In this document: positions 1,836-29,592 of the stretch, one piece after another
How positions within the stretch are numbered: position 1 is the first letter of the stretch
How the letters are laid out: each line of letters begins with the position of its first letter
Assembly: GCA_041550235.1 (NCBI GenBank)
Contig: JBFEPE010000001.1
Span: forward strand, 8,003 to 72,002
Direction: 5' to 3'
DNA from: Minisyncoccia bacterium
GTDB lineage: Bacteria > Patescibacteriota > Minisyncoccia > UBA6257 > JAAZHW01
DNA: 64,000 nucleotides
The notes under the pieces: model-generated
Databases searched by the model: none
What the model was told of the DNA's origin: nothing
What the model saw: the letters and a program-made list of their open reading frames with translations, nothing else
Program-made: the position numbers and the translations under genes

Positions 1836-3212
1836 CTACCCCTGATATTCTTCTACACCGCTGAAATTATCATCTATCTCTCTAAACATTGTTGTCTCTG
1901 GTTTAAATTTCAAATTAATGCTACCGAGAGGCCCATTTCTATGTTTGGCAACAATTAATTCCGCCGTATTTTTTTCTTCTTCGCTCACATCATCAGGATG
2001 TTTCTCTCTGTCTTTTCTATGAATAAACATAACAATATCAGCATCCTGCTCAATAGAGCCGGAGTCTCTCAAGTCCGCCAATCGTGGTCTCTTGTGGTCT
2101 CTTTGCTCAATCGCTCGAGATAGTTGTGAAATAGCAATGATAGGAATATTCAATTCTCTCGCCAATGTCTTTAACCCTCTTGATATTTCAGTTGTTTGCT
2201 GAACGAGACCACTGAACTTTGTGTCTCTTGGAATAATCAATTGGAGATAATCAACAATAAGCATATTCAACCCCTTCTCTGCTTGAAGTCGTCTTGCCAT
2301 TGTTCTTATCCTCATAATATTTGATGAGGGAGCATCGTCTATATATATCGGAGACTGGGATATTTGATCAATTCCTTGATGAAGTAAATCGTAATCATTT
2401 TGGCTCTTGCTTAATTTCCCCGTCCTTATTTTCCAAAGATCAACTCCTGATGCCATACTAATAAATCTATCTACTACTTGGTCTCGGGACATTTCCAAGC
2501 TAAAAACACCGATTGAATTTTTTTCCTTTACGGCGGCTTGAAGGGCGATGTTAAGAGCTAATGATGTTTTTCCTAATGATGGGCGAGCAGCTAATATAAT
2601 AAGGTCAGATTTTTGAAATCCGGATAATAAATTATCTAATTTTGTAAATCCAGTGCTTACCCCCCTTATCTTTTTCTCATCTTGCCTGTCTAATCTTTCC
2701 ATAAATTGAGGGATATCTTCTTTAATGCCCTTCAATTGTTGGCTAATAAGAGAGCTTTGGGTTACTTGAAATATTTTTTGTTCAACCTCATCAAGTAAGT
2801 CATCAACATTTCTGTCCTCTTGTCTTCCAAGCCCGTCTATTTCTTGAGCGGTAAAAATTAAATCTCTAAGAATTCTTTTTTGCTGGACTATCTTTGCATA
2901 AGAAGTTATGTGGCTTGATGTTGGAACTCCGCTTGCTAATGTTGATAAGTAAGTTGCTCCGCCGACGGATTCTAATATTTTTTTTGATTTTAATCTTTCG
3001 GTTAGATTTACTATATCAATTGGCTCTCTTTGGTTATATAATTCTAAAATTGTTTCGTATATTTTTTGATGAGCGGGTTTGTAGAAGTCGCTGGGGCTCA
3101 AGAAGTCTCCTATTTTTATAACTCCATTTTTGTCTATTAAAAGAGCCCCCAAAACTGATTGTTCGGCTTCAATATTTTGAGGAGGTATTATGTTTTTATC
3201 AATATTTGACAT
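1836..3212 (-). CDS. dnaB: Replicative DNA helicase DnaB
   Basis: N-terminal PPQNIEAEQSVLGALLID. Walker A AARPSLGKTSLALN. RecA-like C-terminal domain. 458 aa. Confidence 0.9.
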   Translation of the reverse strand: MSNIDKNIIPPQNIEAEQSVLGALLIDKNGVIKIGDFLSPSDFYKPAHQKIYETILELYNQREPIDIVNLTERLKSKKILESVGGATYLSTLASGVPTSSHITSYAKIVQQKRILRDLIFTAQEIDGLGRQEDRNVDDLLDEVEQKIFQVTQSSLISQQLKGIKEDIPQFMERLDRQDEKKIRGVSTGFTKLDNLLSGFQKSDLIILAARPSLGKTSLALNIALQAAVKEKNSIGVFSLEMSRDQVVDRFISMASGVDLWKIRTGKLSKSQNDYDLLHQGIDQISQSPIYIDDAPSSNIMRIRTMARRLQAEKGLNMLIVDYLQLIIPRDTKFSGLVQQTTEISRGLKTLARELNIPIIAISQLSRAIEQRDHKRPRLADLRDSGSIEQDADIVMFIHRKDREKHPDDVSEEEKNTAELIVAKHRNGPLGSINLKFKPETTMFREIDDNFSGVEEYQG

Positions 3213-3252: not shown

Positions 3253-3654
3253 ATGGGAAAAACAACTTATGAATTTGGCACTCTCTCTGATAATATTCCA
3301 AGGGATAAAATAAATGGTGTAGTGGATGAAATAGAAAATATTGTTTCTGAAAGAGGGGGGGGCTGGATTTTTAAAAAATCAGTAGAAAAAGATAATGACA
3401 GGGAAAAAATAAAGGTATTAATCTTAAAAGAAGGAAAGGGAGTTGTAGATATTGAAATTGATGAAAAAGCATTGGGTTTTGTTGGCTGGCTGGACAAATT
3501 CCCATCCAGACTAAAAGATACTTTTTATCCCCCCAAAATGGAAGTGCTTATTGGAGAGCAAGGTGATGGGTGCAATGATGAAATTGTTGAATTAGGAGAG
3601 AGTATAAGCGACATAATAAGTGGCCATCTACATCTCTTTACAACGACATCTTAA
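3253..3654 (+). CDS. Hypothetical protein (start MGKTTYEF; listed ORF begins 3190)
   Basis: Strong SD taggaggt 6 nt before the ATG at 3253. No family recognised. Confidence 0.5.
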   Translation: MGKTTYEFGTLSDNIPRDKINGVVDEIENIVSERGGGWIFKKSVEKDNDREKIKVLILKEGKGVVDIEIDEKALGFVGWLDKFPSRLKDTFYPPKMEVLIGEQGDGCNDEIVELGESISDIISGHLHLFTTTS

Positions 3655-7244: not shown

Positions 7245-8207
7245 ATGAAAAATGTTTGGGAAAAATTAAGAAATAAAAAAGGGGGATTTTTTTGTTTGGC
7301 CCCAATGTCGGGAATTACAGATATAACATTCCGTCAAATAATATCAAAAATTGGAAGACCCGATATATTTTGGACAGAATTTTTATCATGCGATGGCATC
7401 TGCTCAGCAGGAAAAAAAGAATTATTATCAAACCTTATCTTTGATGAAAAAAAAGAGAGACCAATTATCGCCCAATTTTTTGGCAAAAATCCCGAAAATT
7501 TTTATCAATGCGGAAAATTAGCAAAAGAAATGAAATTTGATGGAGTAGATATAAATTTAGGATGCCCCGACAGGGCAGTTATAAAGCAGGGAGCAGGGGC
7601 AAGTCTTATCAAGGACAAGTTATTAGTCAAAGAGATAATTTCTGCCACTAAAAAAGGAGCAAAAGATTTGCCTGTTTCAGTAAAGACAAGAATTGGCTGG
7701 GATAAGAATGAGGTGGATGATTGGATTTCTTTTTTATTAGAAAATGATTTGACTGCCATCACAATTCACGGGCGAACAAAGAAGCAGGTTTATTCCGGAG
7801 TGGCTAATTGGGAAGCAATAGGAAAAGCGGTGGAGATAAGAAATAGAATGGATAAGAAAACAATAATTATCGGCAATGGAGATATTAAGAGTGCTCAAGA
7901 GGGGATTGATAAGATGAGAATTTTTGGTGTGGATGGAGTTATGATTGGAAGGGGAGTGTTGGCAAATCCATGGGTTTTTTCAGGAAGAGATGGTGATGAT
8001 ATTTCAAGAGAGGAGAGAATTAATACCTTATCAAATCATTTAAAATTATTTAGTAAGATATATAAAGGCAAGAAGCCGTTCAATGAGATGAAGAAATATT
8101 TTAAGCCATATATCTCCGGCTTTTTAGGAGCAAAGGAATTAAGAATTAAGTTGATGAATAGCAATTCAGTCAATGATGCAATTCACATCCTTTTGTTAAA
8201 AAAATAG
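7245..8207 (+). CDS. dus: tRNA-dihydrouridine synthase
   Basis: FCLAPMSGITDITFRQI. TIM-barrel FMN motifs and conserved Cys (NLGCP). 320 aa. Confidence 0.85.
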   Translation: MKNVWEKLRNKKGGFFCLAPMSGITDITFRQIISKIGRPDIFWTEFLSCDGICSAGKKELLSNLIFDEKKERPIIAQFFGKNPENFYQCGKLAKEMKFDGVDINLGCPDRAVIKQGAGASLIKDKLLVKEIISATKKGAKDLPVSVKTRIGWDKNEVDDWISFLLENDLTAITIHGRTKKQVYSGVANWEAIGKAVEIRNRMDKKTIIIGNGDIKSAQEGIDKMRIFGVDGVMIGRGVLANPWVFSGRDGDDISREERINTLSNHLKLFSKIYKGKKPFNEMKKYFKPYISGFLGAKELRIKLMNSNSVNDAIHILLLKK

Positions 8208-14764: not shown

Positions 14765-15345
14765 GAAGACAAGATGGATATTGGCAGGCGAGCGAGGAGC
14801 TTAAAAATTTGATATAAGGGTATAAAATTGTATTTTTAATTTTCTAAATTGTTATGCGGAATAATTTAGAAAAAAGATGAGATATCGATTCCAAGCATCA
14901 CTTTTGTTATTTTTTAGAGGGGCGATTTATTAATTCCCTCCCCCGCCGTAGGCGGGGGAGGGAATGGAGTTAGAAAATAATAAGAGTGATGTTTGGATAA
15001 TAATATTTCTCATCGGGGCAGATAATTAAGGGTGTGTGGTGGATGCCTTGACTTGTAAAGGCGAAGAAGGACGTGGCGTGGCTGCGATAAGCTTCGGGGA
15101 GTTGCTTAGCAAACTTTGATCCGGAGATTTCCGAATGGGGAAACCCATCTCGAATTTAAACTCGAGATATCCCATCTTATCTTAAAGATGGGGAGCTAAC
15201 CCGCTGAAGTGAAACATCTCAGTAAGCGGAGGAAAAGAAAAAAAGATGAATTATTTGTTCCACTTGTTTTAAATATTAGAACAAGTAGAACATCTAATTC
15301 ATTCATTCCCTAAGTAGCGGCGAGCGAAAGGGGAAGAGCCCAAAC

Positions 15346-15448
15346 CCAGCCCCAGTTTTTATCTAGTGACGAAATTTGTATTTGATTAATTTATTAAGAA
15401 AAAGATTATTTATTCAAATAAAAGTGGCTGGTTAAAAACTGGGGCTGG
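15346..15448 (+). mobile_element. 23S intervening sequence copy a (hairpin element with CCAGCCCCAGTTTT / AAAACTGGGGCTGG termini)
   Basis: About 103-nt AT-rich insert bounded by a perfect 14-nt terminal inverted repeat. About 95% identical to copy e at 17801-17901. Confidence 0.7.
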
Positions 15449-15765
15449 GGGTTGTAAGATTATAAAATCTCGTTTAATCGTGGTAGAGAAAAAATTAAGT
15501 TTATTAATAGAATTTGCTGGGAAGCAAAACCAAAGAAGGTGATAGTCCTGTATATGAAAATTTACTTATCTCTATGTTTATTTTCTTGAGTACTTCGGAA
15601 AAGGAAAAATCCGAAGGAATCTAGCTGAACTATCAGCTAAGGCTAAATACTTTACAAGATCGATAGCGAACCAGTACCGTGAGGGAAAGGTGAAAAGCAG
15701 GCCGGTGAGGCCAGTGAAATAGTACCTGAAACCACACATTTACAAGCAATCAGAGTCTGTCATAT

Positions 15766-15945
15766 CTGTTTGTTCTTTTTAAATTTAAAATCTTTTTGAT
15801 CTACTTGCAGAAGGTCTTGAGATGCATTTTAGTTAGCAGGGGGGAGGCATTTTTTGCCTGGTTAAGACCATATTTTCCCTAGACCCAAACGGGATACCCC
15901 CATTGCTTTATTTAATAGTGTCCTTTTTAAAAAAAGGACAAACAG
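15766..15945 (+). other. 23S expansion segment / IVS bounded by ctgtttgttc...ggacaaacag
   Basis: About 180-nt insert relative to consensus 23S domain I/II. Closed by a 10-bp inverted repeat. Confidence 0.5.
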
Positions 15946-16011
15946 ATGTGGCGGATAATGGTGTGCCTATTGAAGAATGAGCCAACGAGTGTATGGATAT
16001 TGCTGATTAAC

Positions 16012-16119
16012 CCAGCCCCAGTTTTATGATAGTTTTCTAAAGTGAATAAAATTTTGATTCGCTTTGGAACGAGCGACATGTGTGTTGCTGATAAAACTTA
16101 TTGGTAAAACTGGGGCTGG
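16012..16119 (+). mobile_element. 23S intervening sequence copy b (same terminal inverted repeats, different interior)
   Basis: cccagccccagtttt...aaaactggggctgggg. Confidence 0.7.
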
Positions 16120-16660
16120 GGAAGTCAAAGGGAAACCAAGTCTTAACAGGCGACAACAATTTTTTCTTTTGGTCTTATTGGCTAAAGGAAAAATTTGTAA
16201 GTAGTATTCATACGACCCGAAGCCAGAGCGAGCTTGCCATGGCCAGGGTGAACCTCATCGAAAGATGAGGGGAGGCCCGAACCGTTAGGTCGTGCAAATC
16301 CTTCGGATGAGCTGTGGTAAGAAGTGAAAAGCTAATCGAGCCTGGTAATAGCTGGTTCTCCTCGAAATAGTTTTAGGACTAGCGTCTATTTTATCCTATT
16401 GCAGGTAGAGCTACTGGTTGAGAAGAATAGGGGGCAACCTCGGCTTCTTAGTCAAACTCCGAATGGTGATAGGTTATGAATAGGCAGTTAGACTGTGGGG
16501 GCTAAGCTCCATGGTCAAAAGGGCATGAACCCAGATCGCCATCTAAGGTCCCTAAATCTAGACTAAGTGTTGCAAAAGGTAGTGATCGACCGAAGACAGG
16601 TAGGATGTTAGCTTAGAGGTAGCTATCATTTAAAGAGTGTGTAACAACCCACTGCCATAT

Positions 16661-16762
16661 CCAGCCCCACTTTTTAACTTGAAATCTAAATTTTTCATTG
16701 GTTTATAATTGCAAAAAGTTTTAAATCGTGATTTATAGATTCTAGCTAAAAAGTGGGGCTGG
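16661..16762 (+). mobile_element. 23S intervening sequence copy c (variant termini CCAGCCCCACTTTTT / AAAAAGTGGGGCTGG)
   Basis: Inserted between gagtgtgtaacaacccactg and ggtcg of the conserved helix. Confidence 0.65.
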
Positions 16763-17377
16763 ATTGGTCGGTTGCATCGAAAATGTATCGGGGCTAAGTC
16801 TAGTACCGAAGTTGCGAATTTCCTCGCTTTTTAGTGGGGGAGTGGTAGAGGAGCATTCCATATGTGATGAAGCTGGACCCGAGAGGGCTGGTGGAGTATA
16901 TGGAAGAGAGAATGTTGGCATGAGTAACCGCAAGCAAGGTGAGAAACCTTGTCGCCGAAAACCCAAGGTTTCCGTGGCAATGTCAATCAGCCACGGGTTA
17001 GGCGGCCCTAAGGCGATGGCGAAAGCCGTAGTCGATGGACAGCTGGTTAATATTCCAGCTCTTCTAAGTAAATTCGATGGAGTGACGGGGGAAATAAGGT
17101 TGAGTGTCTTATTGGTTTGGCATTACTACCCCTAAGAAATGTTTTTTTGGTAAATCCGGAAAACTGCTTTTAATAGCGAATTTCGGGGGATGCAAAATTC
17201 CGCTTCGGCGGGAAATTTGACTGAATAGCCCTCCAAGAAAAGCTTCTAAGATATATTTATTTAGAATCCGTACTCTAAACCGACACAGGTGGGTAGGTAG
17301 AGAATACCAAGGCGAACGGGTGAGTCTTCCTTAAGGAACTCGGCAAAAAAGCGACCGTAAGTTCGCGATAAGGTCTT

Positions 17378-17683
17378 CCAGCCTCAGTTTTGTGTTATAA
17401 TTTATGATATGTGGGTTGTATATATCATACAAAATGATTTTTCAGAAGAAATCTATATCGGCATAACCAAGGATTTAAAAAGAAGAATCTCAACTCATAA
17501 TTCTAATGGCAAAAAATTTACCACTAGGAAAAATGGTAAATGGATTTTGATTTATGCTGAGGCATACAAGTCAAAAAAAGATGCTATTGTAAGAGAGATG
17601 AAATTGAAAAATCATGGAAGTGCAAAGCATAATTTAATTAAACGAATTAAAAATAGTTTAATTGAACACAAAACTGAGGCTGG
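17378..17683 (+). mobile_element. 23S intervening sequence copy d, carrying a GIY-YIG endonuclease ORF (termini CCAGCCTCAGTTTT / AAAACTGAGGCTGG)
   Basis: Same terminal inverted-repeat architecture as copies a-c and e, but 306 nt long with an internal ORF. Confidence 0.7.
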
Positions 17684-17756
17684 ACGCAGCGAAAGTATCC
17701 CTGGCGACTGTTTATCAAAAACACAGGTCCCTGCTAACTCGCAAGAGGATGTATAG
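17409..17756 (+). CDS. GIY-YIG family homing endonuclease-like ORF inside 23S IVS (C-terminal ~25 aa read through into rRNA exon)
   Basis: VYIIQN...YIGITKDLKRRISTHN matches GIY-(10)-YIG with conserved R and H/N. The ORF starts 18 nt inside the IVS. Confidence 0.6.
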   Translation: MWVVYIIQNDFSEEIYIGITKDLKRRISTHNSNGKKFTTRKNGKWILIYAEAYKSKKDAIVREMKLKNHGSAKHNLIKRIKNSLIEHKTEAGRSESIPGDCLSKTQVPANSQEDV

Positions 17757-17800
17757 GGGCTGATGCCTGACCGATGCGGGAAGGTTAAATCTGGCGGTCC

Positions 17801-17901
17801 CCAGCCCCAGTTTTTATCTAGTGACGAAAATTTGAATTTAATTAATTTATTAAAAAAGATTATTTATTCAAATAAAAGTGGCTGGTTAAAAACTGGGGCT
17901 G
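17801..17901 (+). mobile_element. 23S intervening sequence copy e (near-identical to copy a)
   Basis: ccagccccagtttttatctagtgacgaaaatttgaattta...aaaactggggctgg. Confidence 0.7.
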
Positions 17902-18379
17902 GGGGCTAACTGGATGAAGCCCCCGTCAATGTCGGCCGTAACTATAACGGTCCAAAGGTAGCGAAATTCCTTGTCGGGTAAATTCCGACGTGCATGAACG
18001 GCTTAACGACTGGGGAACTGTCTCAAGGAAGAGCCCGGTGAAAATGCAATTTCAGCGAAGATGCTGAGTACCCGCAGCAAGACGAAAAGACCCCGGGAGC
18101 TTTACTGTAGCTTGGTATTGGGCTTGAGAATGTAATGCGTAGCATAGGTGGGAGACTTTGAAGTTTCAATTTCGGTTGAGATGGAGTCGCCAGTGAAATA
18201 CCACTCTTTATATTTTTAAGTTCTAACCTTGATGGAAAAAACATTAGGGGACAGTGCCTGGTGGGCAGTTTTTCTGGGGCGGAATCCTCCCAAAGAGTAA
18301 CGGAGGAGTTTATTAAGGTCAGCTAGGTGCGGATGGAAATCGCACTGATAGTGTAAAGGCAAAAGCTGGCTTAACTGCG

Positions 18380-18480
18380 AGGCCTACAAGCCGAGCTCTA
18401 TTTCGTGTTTCGCATAAGAACTTTCAAGAAAATAATAATTCTACCCCCGCCCATACGGGCGGGGGTAGAATAGGCAAATT
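18380..18480 (+). repeat. 23S expansion containing a GC-hairpin repeat (ctacccccgcccatacgggcgggggtag)
   Basis: About 100-nt insert relative to consensus. It carries the same hairpin family seen in intergenic regions. Confidence 0.5.
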
Positions 18481-18596
18481 TAACTCTGGAATTTCTTGTG
18501 CGGAGCATGAGATAGACTTTCTAGATAATTATATTTAGATCGAGATACGAAAGTAGAACTTAGTGACCCGATGGTTCTCTGTAGAAAGGCCATCGA

Positions 18597-18628
<32 letters not shown>

Positions 18629-18766
18629 TTAGTTGCGCCCAAGAGTCCATATCGACGGCGCAGTTCGACACCTCGATGTCGGCTCATCTTATCCTGGAGG
18701 CGGAGAAGCTTCCAAGGGTTTGGCTGTTCGCCAATTAAAAAGATACGCGAGCTGGGTTCAGACCGT

Positions 18767-19122
18767 TGAGTAGTCAAGATAATTTTTGGTTTTTAGGGTG
18801 GATAGTGTGTTTCTTTCTCTTAAATTAATTAAAATTATTATTAAATTGACTTTTCAGCAGTCTGAATCCGAGGAATAAGACATCAATTTACGGCGGCATT
18901 TCGTAGTAATACGGAATGAAAAACCGACTCATATCGGTGGAATCCCAATGGGACAATACCGAGGGAAGTTGTGTATGTTAATATCATGGTGGTCATTTCG
19001 TCAAATAAAAGATAATGTTAAATGACATGCATTAACCCCGTAGAGACTATATGTCGGTCTCCTCTTTTGACAAAGAGGACGAAGATATAGTCCAATGCAC
19101 TTAGTAATAAGTGGGAAACATG
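18767..19122 (+). mobile_element. Group I intron in 23S rRNA (ORF-less, ~356 nt)
   Basis: Exon junction gaccgt|cgtaagacaggttgg reconstitutes conserved GAACGUCGUGAGACAGUUCGG. Intron follows a U and ends in G. R-like gtagagacta (19040-19049) and S-like aagatatagtcc (19082-19093). Confidence 0.6.
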
Positions 19123-19263
19123 CGTAAGACAGGTTGGTCTCTATCTGCTGTGGGCGTTGATACTTGAGGGAATTTGACCCTAGTACGAGAGGACCGGGTT
19201 GAACGAACCTCTGGTCTATCAGCTTTCCTACCAGGGGAATTGCTGAGTAGCTAAGTTCGGTTG

Positions 19264-19296
<33 letters not shown>

Positions 19297-19480
19297 CATC
19301 CCAAGATTAGGTATCCATTTCAATTTATTGGAAGTCATCCCCTCAGAGACGATGAGGTTGATAGGCTTTAGGTGTAAGGTCAGTAATGATTTTAGCCAAG
19401 AAGTACTAATCGGATGAGTTCTGCCTCGATGAGAGATATTATTTATTATTAATATCAATTTTTACCCTTATATTTTTAAG

Positions 19481-20258: not shown

Positions 20259-20373
20259 TATTGGTATTTTATCTAAGTGTGACCCACCTGTTCCCATTCC
20301 GAACACAGAAGTGAAAGCATTTAGACCCGATGGTACTTGCCCGAACACGGTTGGTAGAGTAGGGTATGCCAAT
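20259..20373 (+). rRNA. rrf: 5S ribosomal RNA
   Basis: ccacctgttcccattccgaacacagaagtgaaag...ccgatggta...agagtagggtatgcc. Helix I pairs ttggtat with atgccaa. Confidence 0.8.
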
Positions 20374-20386
20374 ATTCAAAAGATTT

Positions 20387-27650: not shown

Positions 27651-27723
27651 GCCGTTGTAGCTCAGTTGGTAGAGCAACGCCGTGGTAAGGCGTAGGTCAG
27701 CGGTTCAAGTCCGCTCAACGGCT
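27651..27723 (+). tRNA. tRNA-Thr (anticodon GGT), island-borne copy
   Basis: gccgttg/caacggc acceptor. D-arm gctc-agttggta-gagc. Anticodon arm acgcc-gtGGTaa-ggcgt. T-arm agcgg-ttcaagt-ccgct. Discriminator T. Confidence 0.85.
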
Positions 27724-27748
27724 CCTTAAAAAGCATTACAGATTAGTA

Positions 27749-28660
27749 ATGTTTTTTATTATTATGGATATACAAATTTTAGTTCGTAAGTTTTGTGATT
27801 ATTCAACTTTTATTAAAGGATATACTCCGCAAACAATTAAGAGATATAGGCAGACAATTCGTTCCTATATCAAATTCGCTAATATCACTGAAATAGAGGA
27901 AGTGAATTTAGAGAATGTTCGTAATCTTTTTTATTCTGGCCGAACCCAAAGGAATTGGTCAACCAATACCTATATCTGCTACCATAAATCTTTAATTGTT
28001 TTCTTTCGTTGGTGTGTAAGTGAAGGCCACCTTCAATCCAATCCAGCCGAAGAGATTGAAGTGCCGAAACTGGAAAAGAAAATTCCGCCTAAATTAACCA
28101 AGCAAGAAACGATGAGGATATTGGAAGTAGTAGAAAATTATCCTTATATCAATGATTTTTTAAGGCAAAGAAATTATGCTATCTTTGCCACAATCATAAT
28201 GGCAGGATTGAGAAAAAATGAGATTATCAATTTAAGGTGTGTTGATATAGATATTGAAAATCTCTCTATTTTTATTCGGCAGGGGAAAGGAAGTAAGGAT
28301 CGGATTGTGCCAATCAATTACAAATTAGCTGAAATTTTAAGCAAATACGAAAAAGAAAGAAAAAGATTGAAAAAAACTTGCCCCGAATACTTTGTTTCTC
28401 TCTATAAAAATATGGGGATTAGGCATAATGGCTTAAAGTTATTGGTAGAACAAATATCAAAAGCATCGGCGATTAAATTCACTCTTCACAAATTAAGGCA
28501 TACCTTTGCCACAATGATGTTGGAGGGAGGATGTGATATTTATTCTCTCTCTAAAATGATGGGCCATAATGATATAAAAACAACCACAATTTATTTGGCC
28601 GCCAGCATAGAGCATTTAAGAGAACAGATGATTAAACACCCAATGGGAGATGTTTTGTAG
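27749..28660 (+). CDS. Tyrosine site-specific recombinase/integrase (XerC/D-like)
   Basis: C-terminal catalytic box HKLRHTFATMMLEGGCDIYSLSKMMGHNDIKTTTIYL (R..H-R..Y). 303 aa. Adjacent to the tRNA. Confidence 0.9.
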   Translation: MFFIIMDIQILVRKFCDYSTFIKGYTPQTIKRYRQTIRSYIKFANITEIEEVNLENVRNLFYSGRTQRNWSTNTYICYHKSLIVFFRWCVSEGHLQSNPAEEIEVPKLEKKIPPKLTKQETMRILEVVENYPYINDFLRQRNYAIFATIIMAGLRKNEIINLRCVDIDIENLSIFIRQGKGSKDRIVPINYKLAEILSKYEKERKRLKKTCPEYFVSLYKNMGIRHNGLKLLVEQISKASAIKFTLHKLRHTFATMMLEGGCDIYSLSKMMGHNDIKTTTIYLAASIEHLREQMIKHPMGDVL

Positions 28661-29400: not shown

Positions 29401-29592
29401 AAATCAATAATTTAATATGCCTAACCCCTATGATTATTCATAGGGTATGGCGATAAATCCATCCCTGTATTGAGCTCCTCGTTCAGCTTATCAGGGATGG
29501 TCATATTCGGAAACGGATATGGATGATCGCAAGATCGTCAGGTTGGCGGGGAGCTTTGTGTTCCAAGTCAACCACTAAAACCATCCCTAAAT
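29401..29592 (+). ncRNA. Candidate structured cis-regulatory RNA in the 5' leader of the 29593 membrane-protein gene
   Basis: Locally GC-richer. Hairpins ccctatga-ttat-tcataggg; ccatccctg...cagggatgg; tattcg-GAAA-cggata; gatc-GCAA-gatc; ggttg...caacc. A second ccatccc copy abuts the start codon. Confidence 0.4.

Follow-up and report, generated by a model that had tools for sequence, protein, structure and literature searches.

The region around the 23S rRNA gene of a Minisyncoccia bacterium (GTDB lineage Bacteria; Patescibacteriota; Minisyncoccia; UBA6257; JAAZHW01) was analyzed in a 64,000-nt stretch of DNA, from here on the window, which corresponds to positions 8,003 to 72,002 of the forward strand of contig JBFEPE010000001.1 (assembly GCA_041550235.1). 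The gene is 4415 nt long against a model of 2925 positions, which means around 1.5 kb of insertions, and five of these insertions (copies a to e) form a family of hairpin-ended elements, of which copy d carries an open reading frame (ORF) for a GIY-YIG nuclease. All five had been listed in a preliminary description made from the sequence alone, and the coordinates of the terminus motif (a, 15346-15448; b, 16012-16119; c, 16661-16762; d, 17378-17683; e, 17801-17902) agree with that list within 1 nt, the end of copy e being 17902 and not 17901. The rows below add the flanking pair to each copy.

15015-19429, forward strand: 23S rRNA host gene (Rfam RF02541, 2144 bits, full length)
15345-15449, forward strand: copy a, ORF-less; arms 15346-15359 and 15435-15448, flanking C..G; fold of -47.7 kcal/mol, z -7.7
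16011-16120, forward strand: copy b, ORF-less; located by motif search; fold z -10.1
16660-16763, forward strand: copy c, ORF-less; located by motif search, fold and pairing logic
17377-17684, forward strand: copy d, ORF-bearing; 20-bp perfect arms 17377-17396 and 17665-17684, 100% complementary; z -6.7
17393-17401, forward strand: extended -10-like box TGtTATAAT, read from the sequence, ending 7 nt before the ATG
17409-17756, forward strand: GIY-YIG nuclease ORF, 115 aa (Pfam PF01541, E value 3.7e-18)
17800-17903, forward strand: copy e, ORF-less; located by motif search; fold z -10.6; around 95% identical to copy a

Membership of the five insertions in one family was confirmed by a search for the terminus motif CCAGCCCCAGTTTT (up to 2 mismatches), which gave 10 matches in the window versus 0.36 ± 0.56 expected, a number reached in 0 of 100 shuffles, and all 10 matches make up five inverted pairs within the 23S gene. 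The termini pair as extended stems, as described before, with 16-20 bp of perfect helix in which single differences between arms are compensated, in such a way that a G to C change is accompanied by C to G in copy c, and a C to T change by G to A in copy d. Pairing extends to the base immediately beyond the arms (C..G or T..A), and all five copies fold as single long hairpins (z -6.7 to -10.6). The identity of around 95% between copies a and e was reproduced (2 substitutions and 3 gap columns), and copies b and c have only the arms in common, their interiors being different. The short copies a, b, c and e consist of the arms around unrelated, A+T-rich, self-pairing interiors. No known RNA family or ribozyme was detected in the copies at the Rfam gathering thresholds; at E values up to 10 there were only generic long-hairpin matches (plant miRNA precursors, WsnRNA46), far below the cut-offs, and no group I or group II ribozyme signal appeared in the five elements even at that level. 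Splicing had been suggested as one fate of these inserts, and because no ribozyme signature was found, self-splicing is unlikely.

The GIY-YIG ORF of copy d runs through into the rRNA sequence, as had been noticed. The domain spans residues 1-86, HKTEAG is the translation of the 3' arm, and 24 residues of 23S read-through close the protein, with the stop codon located in 23S sequence 72 nt past the 3' arm. Homologs with 57-70% identity mostly end in the same tail of translated 3' arm plus 23S sequence, and the catalytic residues (Y5, Y16, G18, R26, H30, N31, R62 and E63) are invariant among homologs. The predicted structure (predicted local distance difference test score, pLDDT, of 89) is closest to UPF0213 (1ZG2, E value 1e-4) and to the Slx1 nuclease domain (template modelling score 0.6-0.66, root-mean-square deviation 2-3 Å), ahead of UvrC and I-TevI. 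The nuclease consists of the 86-aa catalytic domain only, without a DNA-binding domain, and a weak NCBIfam similarity to group I intron endonucleases is restricted to the 34 N-terminal residues (E value 1.5e-4, below the cut-off). Its clade comprises 799 clusters at 50% identity (E values up to 1e-10), in which stand-alone proteins of 80-120 aa prevail. The ORF-bearing form has the GIY-YIG nuclease as its sole product, and no transposase domain was detected in it. Judging from sequence and structural model, the enzyme is a minimal UPF0213/Slx1-like GIY-YIG domain, conserved and apparently active. The protein of this organism is present also in sequencing run SRR29257546.

The -10-like box upstream of the nuclease gene is shared by many of its homologs. 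A -10-like hexamer was detected 6-8 nt before the start codon in 39 of 64 distinct leaders (3.0 ± 1.6 in shuffles), 26 of those 39 with the TG extension, typically within TTTTGGTATAAT, and Shine-Dalgarno-like motifs were present in 3 of 65 leaders. The box is likely the element's own promoter, and it overlaps the inner 5' arm (TTTTGG-TATAAT). A leaderless mRNA would be made from it, the start codon coinciding with the predicted start of transcription.

The positions of the five copies were determined by alignment to E. coli MG1655 rrlB and to the Rfam model, together with comparison with related 23S genes, and all five insertion points could be placed. Copy a is located at the apex of H15, the covariance model aligning its arms as the H15 stem; copy b is in the loop at the tip of H28 (around 612-616 in E. 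coli); copy c branches from an internal loop, on the 3' strand of H42 (E. coli about 1110-1112); copy d occupies the slot of H63, and copy e the apex of H68. A covariance-model placement of copy c inside the H44 loop was discarded as an alignment artefact, having in mind that the pairing CUGCC/GGUAG and the empty and filled alleles give H42. H63 is poorly conserved and among the helices usually lacking in 23S rRNA from Candidate Phyla Radiation (CPR) members (PMC9297842). The host sites had been regarded as conserved helices; they are instead peripheral and variable.

These sites are polymorphic among relatives, in such a way that empty alleles were found for all five of them. Site a is empty in loci L048 and L049 and filled in L044, L083 and L033, and site b is empty in all 15 other distinct 23S sequences with credible anchors on both sides of H28. 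Site c is filled at the same position in L114, L115, L119 and L120, which carry the CCCTCC arm variant, and empty in L048, L049, L052 and others. Among the loci retrieved by similarity of the protein, about 65 have site d filled, and its sole empty allele is that of L131, whose ORF-bearing copy sits elsewhere. At site e a family-type insertion is present here only, among the credibly anchored loci surveyed. Given the empty alleles and the pairing of the termini, the segments are not expansion segments present in all relatives and devoid of terminal inverted repeats. Movement of the family between sites is shown by the alleles, some empty and some filled, and by copies a and e, which are 95% identical and located at different helices.

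Two of the empty alleles have a short native hairpin with outer pairs similar to the element's outer arms, namely CCGCCC-UCG-GGCGG at H63 of L131 and CCCAGGTCC-GCAA-GGACTTGGG at H15 of L049. This resemblance may be a coincidence, a footprint or a target preference.

A search for the same termini, proposed for other CPR rRNA genes in the preliminary description, was run as a scan of one genome per species, and the pattern was found at 45 loci, bounding hairpins of around 100 nt. Nearly all are from Patescibacteria, of many classes, and one metagenome-assembled genome (MAG) has copies on ten contigs. Between lineages the arms are conserved and the interiors unrelated. Genomic contexts were assigned by Rfam and BLAST. 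Copies are present within 16S (L027, L032) and 23S (L033, L044) genes and in RNase P RNA, where the copy of L039 aligns with the P12 stem and that of L003 with the P16/P17 arm; in L004 and L005 a copy adjoins the P4 strand of this RNA. Further copies lie downstream of a 5S and beside tRNAs, and the remaining ones are intergenic, often 20-70 nt beyond the end of an ORF. The family is therefore dispersed across Patescibacteria well outside the single rRNA gene to which it had been ascribed. No credible interruption of a coding sequence by a family copy was found, and the terminus pattern gave 0 matches in viral contigs.

The interiors add to this picture, as the same subfamily interior occurs at different sites, namely at the H15-assigned site in L044 and upstream of H28 in L052, and likewise in copies a and e of the window and in RNase P P12 of L039. 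The copy in L004 is decayed, and in the WFTA01 MAG the ORF-less copies are abundant, with no GIY-YIG gene in the stretches fetched. Target-site duplications were practically absent, with a direct repeat of at least 4 nt in 1 of 52 copies (0.19 in shuffled controls). Complementarity between the flanks of intergenic copies was modestly enriched (2.6 versus 1.6 contiguous pairs), an excess that comes partly from the extra Y..R pair and from the expanded repeat of one MAG. It is at most a lead towards an entry of these copies into the loops of hairpins that were already there.

Two further observations were made in these loci. Minimal hairpins of 31-45 nt, consisting of the arms and a 3-4 nt loop, were found in L026 (5510-5625) and at the H15 site of L033 and L083, for example CCAGCCCCACTTTT-ATT-AAAAGTGGGGCTGG; they may be the footprints of internal deletion or excision. 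In the RNase P RNA of a Saccharibacterium (L005, about 2426-3145), an ORF-less copy is located at P3 and a GIY-YIG-bearing copy replaces P15-P17, which appears to be a protein-coding gene inside an RNase P RNA gene, as read from the flanks, the Rfam score being below threshold.

The association between the nuclease and the arms was studied in 80 metagenome loci that had been retrieved solely by similarity of the protein. In 79 of them a stem of 17-31 bp, built in the same way, encloses the ORF. About 65 of the 80 are at 23S H63, and the remaining ones at 16S h10, elsewhere in the 23S (H9/H10 region, neighbourhood of H28, leader), or in DNA without rRNA homology. Paralogs at 36-43% identity are likewise bracketed, in 16S h17, in RNase P RNA of a Saccharibacterium (P15-P17 arm) and, as a decayed copy, in non-rRNA DNA, and a distant ORF-bearing homolog (L134), bracketed as well, is located at the tip of 23S H68. 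Another distant homolog (L135) was left out of the bracketing count because its contig is too short. ORF-bearing copies hence occupy at least nine kinds of site (23S H63, H68, H9/H10, near H28 and leader; 16S h10 and h17; RNase P P15-17; non-rRNA DNA), with no common flank sequence. The element had been called a homing one, a term that does not apply in its classic sense to a bare catalytic domain with many different sites and no target sequence common to the flanks. In a separate case (L051, 4933-5367), surface-protein genes flank a 23S_rRNA_IVP (PF05635) gene that lies downstream of a non-rRNA GIY-YIG element, at a distance of around 650 nt, the two classic kinds of intervening sequence (IVS) cargo being neighbours.

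The ORF-less hairpins mostly carry the arm variant of the ORF-bearing copy of the same locus. This applies to CCCTCC in L048, L073 and L115, CCAGCACCAC in L100, the rare CCAGCCGTAGATTT in L109, and CCAGCC in the window and in L052, and the mean distance of an arm core was 2.7 to its own locus versus 4.3 to other cores. An autonomous form with miniature derivatives, as first proposed, fits with arms that are common to both forms and co-vary within loci. [quoted passage not shown]

Selection on the stem was measured in a set of 54 distinct stems and 20 pairs, with 500 shuffles. Pairing was detected in 96.8% of the stem cells versus 76.6 ± 0.9% in the shuffles, both sides have changed in 16 of the 20 pairs, and the covariation score of 0.516, versus 0.147, was reached by 0 of the 500 shuffles; in slid registers, 58% of cells at most were paired. 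There are 27 distinct arm cores across loci, in such a way that the sequence drifts and the pairing is kept. The stem is maintained by compensatory change, and the pairing of the termini thus holds in covariation analysis as well. On the sense strand of the ORF and the rRNA, the non-Watson-Crick cells were 17 G.U versus 3 A.C, an excess that points to pairing in RNA, beyond identical DNA ends.

We consider it probable that the five segments are selfish elements of the IVS type, whose stem acts in the RNA and whose nuclease gives mobility to the DNA. Each copy is bounded by a conserved inverted repeat with 5' YCC-NNN-NNNN-A-N-UUUU(GG) and its 3' complement. Once transcribed, the arms make up an uninterrupted helix of 16-30 bp, which prolongs a peripheral host-RNA helix or takes its place, and this stem would probably serve as an excision signal at the RNA level, most likely cut by RNase III as in classic IVSs. 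In Coxiella and other IVSs, inverted-repeat stems (28 bp in Coxiella) are cut by RNase III in the middle, with no re-ligation where studied (PMC4990558), and for CPR rRNAs it was reported that transcripts lack the insertions (Brown 2015, cited in PMC9297842). RNase III-type excision is plausible here, and the cut would remove the insert and yield functional, possibly fragmented, host RNAs. The nuclease, in turn, would act on DNA to spread the element and would mobilise ORF-less copies in trans via the common arms, probably recognising either a structure (hairpin or cruciform) or the arms themselves, rather than a long target sequence.

Several points weigh against this interpretation. The ORF-less interiors of the window show no homology to copy d outside the arms, so these copies are not its recent deletion derivatives. 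The co-variation of arms within loci is imperfect, with exceptions in L085, L120 and L129, and it could arise from concerted evolution. Part of the G.U bias could come from C-to-T mutation that accompanies transcription and affects the non-template strand. In addition, the search for the best stem, by which the stems were placed, scores G.U as a pair, and the stem ends are biased by this. An RNase III gene was not found in a scan of 20 ORFs of the window (25 further ORFs of at least 130 aa were outside the scan), and the GIY-YIG protein could be a passenger or parasite of the hairpins.

A bolder proposal, which we put forward only tentatively, is that of an unrecognised class of bacterial mobile elements, with hairpin arms and no target-site duplication, in which a minimal Slx1/UPF0213-like nuclease would recognise DNA structure, in the form of hairpin or cruciform apices (for example the helix tips of stable RNA genes, or terminator-like palindromes), and not sequence. 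The same arms would be the excision signal of the transcript, making insertion into essential RNAs harmless. If this were true, the nuclease would be the first candidate mobility enzyme for IVS-type insertions.

It is also conceivable, though unlikely, that the hairpins of around 100 nt are an independent repeat family, either useful to the host or selfish, and that a free-standing GIY-YIG homing gene invades their apex. The ORF-bearing copies would then be parasitised hairpins and not the source of the hairpins. Such nesting would account for an ORF always placed strictly within the arms, for ORF-less interiors unrelated to the ORF-bearing one, for the cargo-free minimal hairpins of L026, L033 and L083, and for a MAG such as WFTA01, rich in ORF-less copies and without a GIY-YIG gene in the fetched stretches. 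It does not explain why four ORF-less copies persist unconverted beside the ORF-bearing one in the same gene, and the overlap between promoter and inner arm suggests that arm and gene co-evolved as a unit. Moreover, arm variants that co-vary with the resident ORF-bearing copy are what would be expected if the enzyme acts on the arms.

The stem could otherwise be a functional RNA module that binds a host protein, like the K-turn/L7Ae modules of archaeal rRNA and RNase P RNA, stays in the mature RNA and has spread by its benefit to the host, an explanation that we find improbable. The RNA-level covariation would be expected under it, as would a stem sequence conserved across phyla around variable interiors and the exposed positions in several stable RNAs, where the stem replaces the native P12, P16/17, H15 or H63. 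Nevertheless, presence among relatives is patchy and the empty alleles function with simple GNRA-capped helices, and the 27 distinct arm cores with pairing kept argue for a structural rather than a sequence-specific requirement; the nuclease cargo, the intergenic copies and the decayed copy of L004 point to a selfish element.

Classic homing by an H63-specific endonuclease, with an intron-like insert spliced from the rRNA and ORF-less hairpins unrelated to mobility, is very improbable and is contradicted by the data overall. The exact H63 position of about 65 of the 80 protein-ascertained copies and the sub-threshold similarity to group I intron endonucleases (E value 1.5e-4) speak for it, but none of the copies has a group I or group II ribozyme signal, the enzyme lacks a DNA-binding domain and is closer to UPF0213/Slx1 than to I-TevI, at least eight other kinds of site are used with no common flank sequence, and H63 itself is poorly conserved and usually missing in CPR (PMC9297842). 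Finally, vertically inherited expansion segments or processing stems, made alike by gene conversion or convergence and with nothing mobile, are hardly credible: although the insertions occupy classic expansion or IVS-tolerant positions and CPR 23S genes are full of insertions (PMC11270868), five helices unrelated to one another have identical termini of 14-17 nt, which distant lineages carry in their RNase P RNA, 16S and intergenic DNA too, copies a and e keep 95% identity over their whole length with site e filled only in this organism, the same subfamily interior is found at different sites in different genomes, and the empty and filled alleles and the copies outside rRNA contradict this explanation.

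The window contains other features in and near the host gene.

14891-14996, forward strand: leader hairpin of uncertain family status, with 27-bp arms (CCAAGCATCACTTTTG...), found by hairpin scan
15250-15304, 15756-15955 (H25), 16155-16197 and 18397-18542: non-family insertions in the 23S gene
18767-19122: ORF-less group I intron in the 23S gene at the E. coli 2593 site (RF00028, 57 bits; Rfam match 18874-19114)
20259-20375: 5S gene, downstream of the 23S (Rfam)
6187, 14940, 18444, 21147, 21196, 54023 and 59605: copies of a GC-rich hairpin repeat

The leader hairpin is located 19 nt upstream of the 5' end of the 23S gene, and its core differs from the family core at 6 of 10 positions; it may be a diverged sixth member of the family or an ordinary processing stem. 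No endonuclease ORF is present in the group I intron, and its position, E. coli 2593, is in CPR a known site of LAGLIDADG introns. No 16S linked to the 23S and 5S genes was found in the window with Rfam. The insertion at H25, a classic IVS site, has 25-nt arms of its own (CTGTTTGTTCTTTTT/AAAAAGGACAAACAG). The GC-rich hairpins, CCCCCGCC-N3-6-GGCGGGGG, are a second dispersed repeat, with 7 copies versus 0 expected in an A+T-rich genome; one copy is within the 18397-18542 insertion and another within the leader hairpin. A third inverted-repeat family, with arms TGAAGTTCA..GAGGA, was observed in the 23S genes of relatives (L048, 3142-3471; L052, 994-1245; L049, 4588-4760), its copy in L048 enclosing a tRNA-like Rfam match (3322-3392, 49.7 bits). 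Elsewhere in the window (27651-28660 and 29418-29539), a tRNA is followed directly by a Xer/phage-type integrase gene, with a LOOT RNA (RF03000, 86.6 bits) nearby.

To our knowledge, the origin and spread of rRNA intervening sequences have been an open question since about 1990, and the idea of an IVS-borne ORF as mobility factor never had a convincing enzyme. An IVS-like family with a conserved nuclease, arm-matched miniatures and changes of site makes IVS mobility directly testable. We know of no description of UPF0213 proteins in association with elements bounded by inverted repeats, and a literature search for it was also empty. Nothing relevant was found either in searches on UPF0213/YhbQ, on GIY-YIG together with MITEs, or on RNase P insertions of Patescibacteria. 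This hairpin-ended family, widespread in Patescibacteria, is apparently undescribed; no paper describing the shared arms was found, in a literature coverage that is incomplete and leaves room for an earlier description. The idea of the IVS-borne ORF as mobility factor is that of Ralph and McClelland (1993), as quoted in PMC4990558.

After Brown et al. (2015), Tsurumaki et al. (2024, PMC11270868) have catalogued, for the rRNA genes of CPR, both short insertions of uncharacterised nature and GIY-YIG insertions that are not introns, and judged the latter to be outside homing. In that work they are separate items, and its text has 0 occurrences of inverted repeats, hairpins or palindromes, no link between GIY-YIG and ORF-less insertions, and no copies outside rRNA. 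The family described here could be a single explanation for a good share of both kinds of insertion, which inflate CPR rRNA genes, the same parasite invading also RNase P RNA and 16S. By its signature in sequence and structure, such inserts could be masked in surveys based on rRNA and in the annotation of Patescibacteria, and the family suggests a biological role for part of the small stand-alone UPF0213-type GIY-YIG family, which is poorly understood.

Compared with known systems, the closest resemblance is to the classic IVSs of Salmonella, Leptospira, Campylobacter and Coxiella, which share the location at 23S helix apices, a long terminal stem, a sporadic and horizontal spread and, in some cases, an ORF. 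As in IVSs, the segments studied here are extra sequence at a helix apex or exposed loop relative to relatives without it, and have complementary termini. They differ in that one family occupies five positions in one gene, at H15, H28, H42, H63 and H68 rather than at H25 and H45, and is present also in 16S, RNase P RNA, tRNA spacers and intergenic DNA. Furthermore, classic IVSs carry the four-helix S23p/23S_rRNA_IVP protein, whereas this family carries a GIY-YIG nuclease with its own predicted promoter.

With REPIN/RAYT systems (hairpins of repetitive extragenic palindromic, REP, sequences and their associated transposases) and MITEs, the family shares many non-autonomous hairpins of around 100 nt in intergenic DNA, often just downstream of genes. 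Like REPIN/RAYT, it has a nuclease gene between inverted copies of the same repeats, and repeat variants that match the resident enzyme-bearing copy. However, its enzyme is a GIY-YIG and not an HUH/Y1 RAYT or a DDE transposase, and its arms are not REP palindromes; unlike MITEs, it makes no target-site duplications (1 of 52) and has many copies inside stable RNA genes.

Group I introns with I-TevI-type GIY-YIG enzymes also encode this domain in an rRNA-gene insertion, but here there is no ribozyme, the enzyme lacks linker and DNA-binding domain, with a fold nearer to UPF0213/Slx1, and the insertion sites are variable and peripheral instead of conserved and functional. In archaeal introns of the bulge-helix-bulge type, the exon-intron junctions have two 3-nt bulges with a 4-bp helix between them, and no bulge interrupts the perfect helices at the junctions here. 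Short mobile palindromes that can enter RNA genes at tolerated positions include the palindromic elements of Rickettsia and, in mitochondria, GC-cluster or double-hairpin elements; these have other sequences and hosts, and we know of no GIY-YIG cargo with shared arms among them. As for the enzyme, its best sequence and structure matches are UPF0213/YhbQ and the Slx1 domain, although, in contrast to Slx1, both an Slx4 partner and a RING/PHD domain are missing. The substrates of Slx1 are branched or structured DNA, and this gives a lead for a structure-directed action of the nuclease on hairpin or cruciform DNA.

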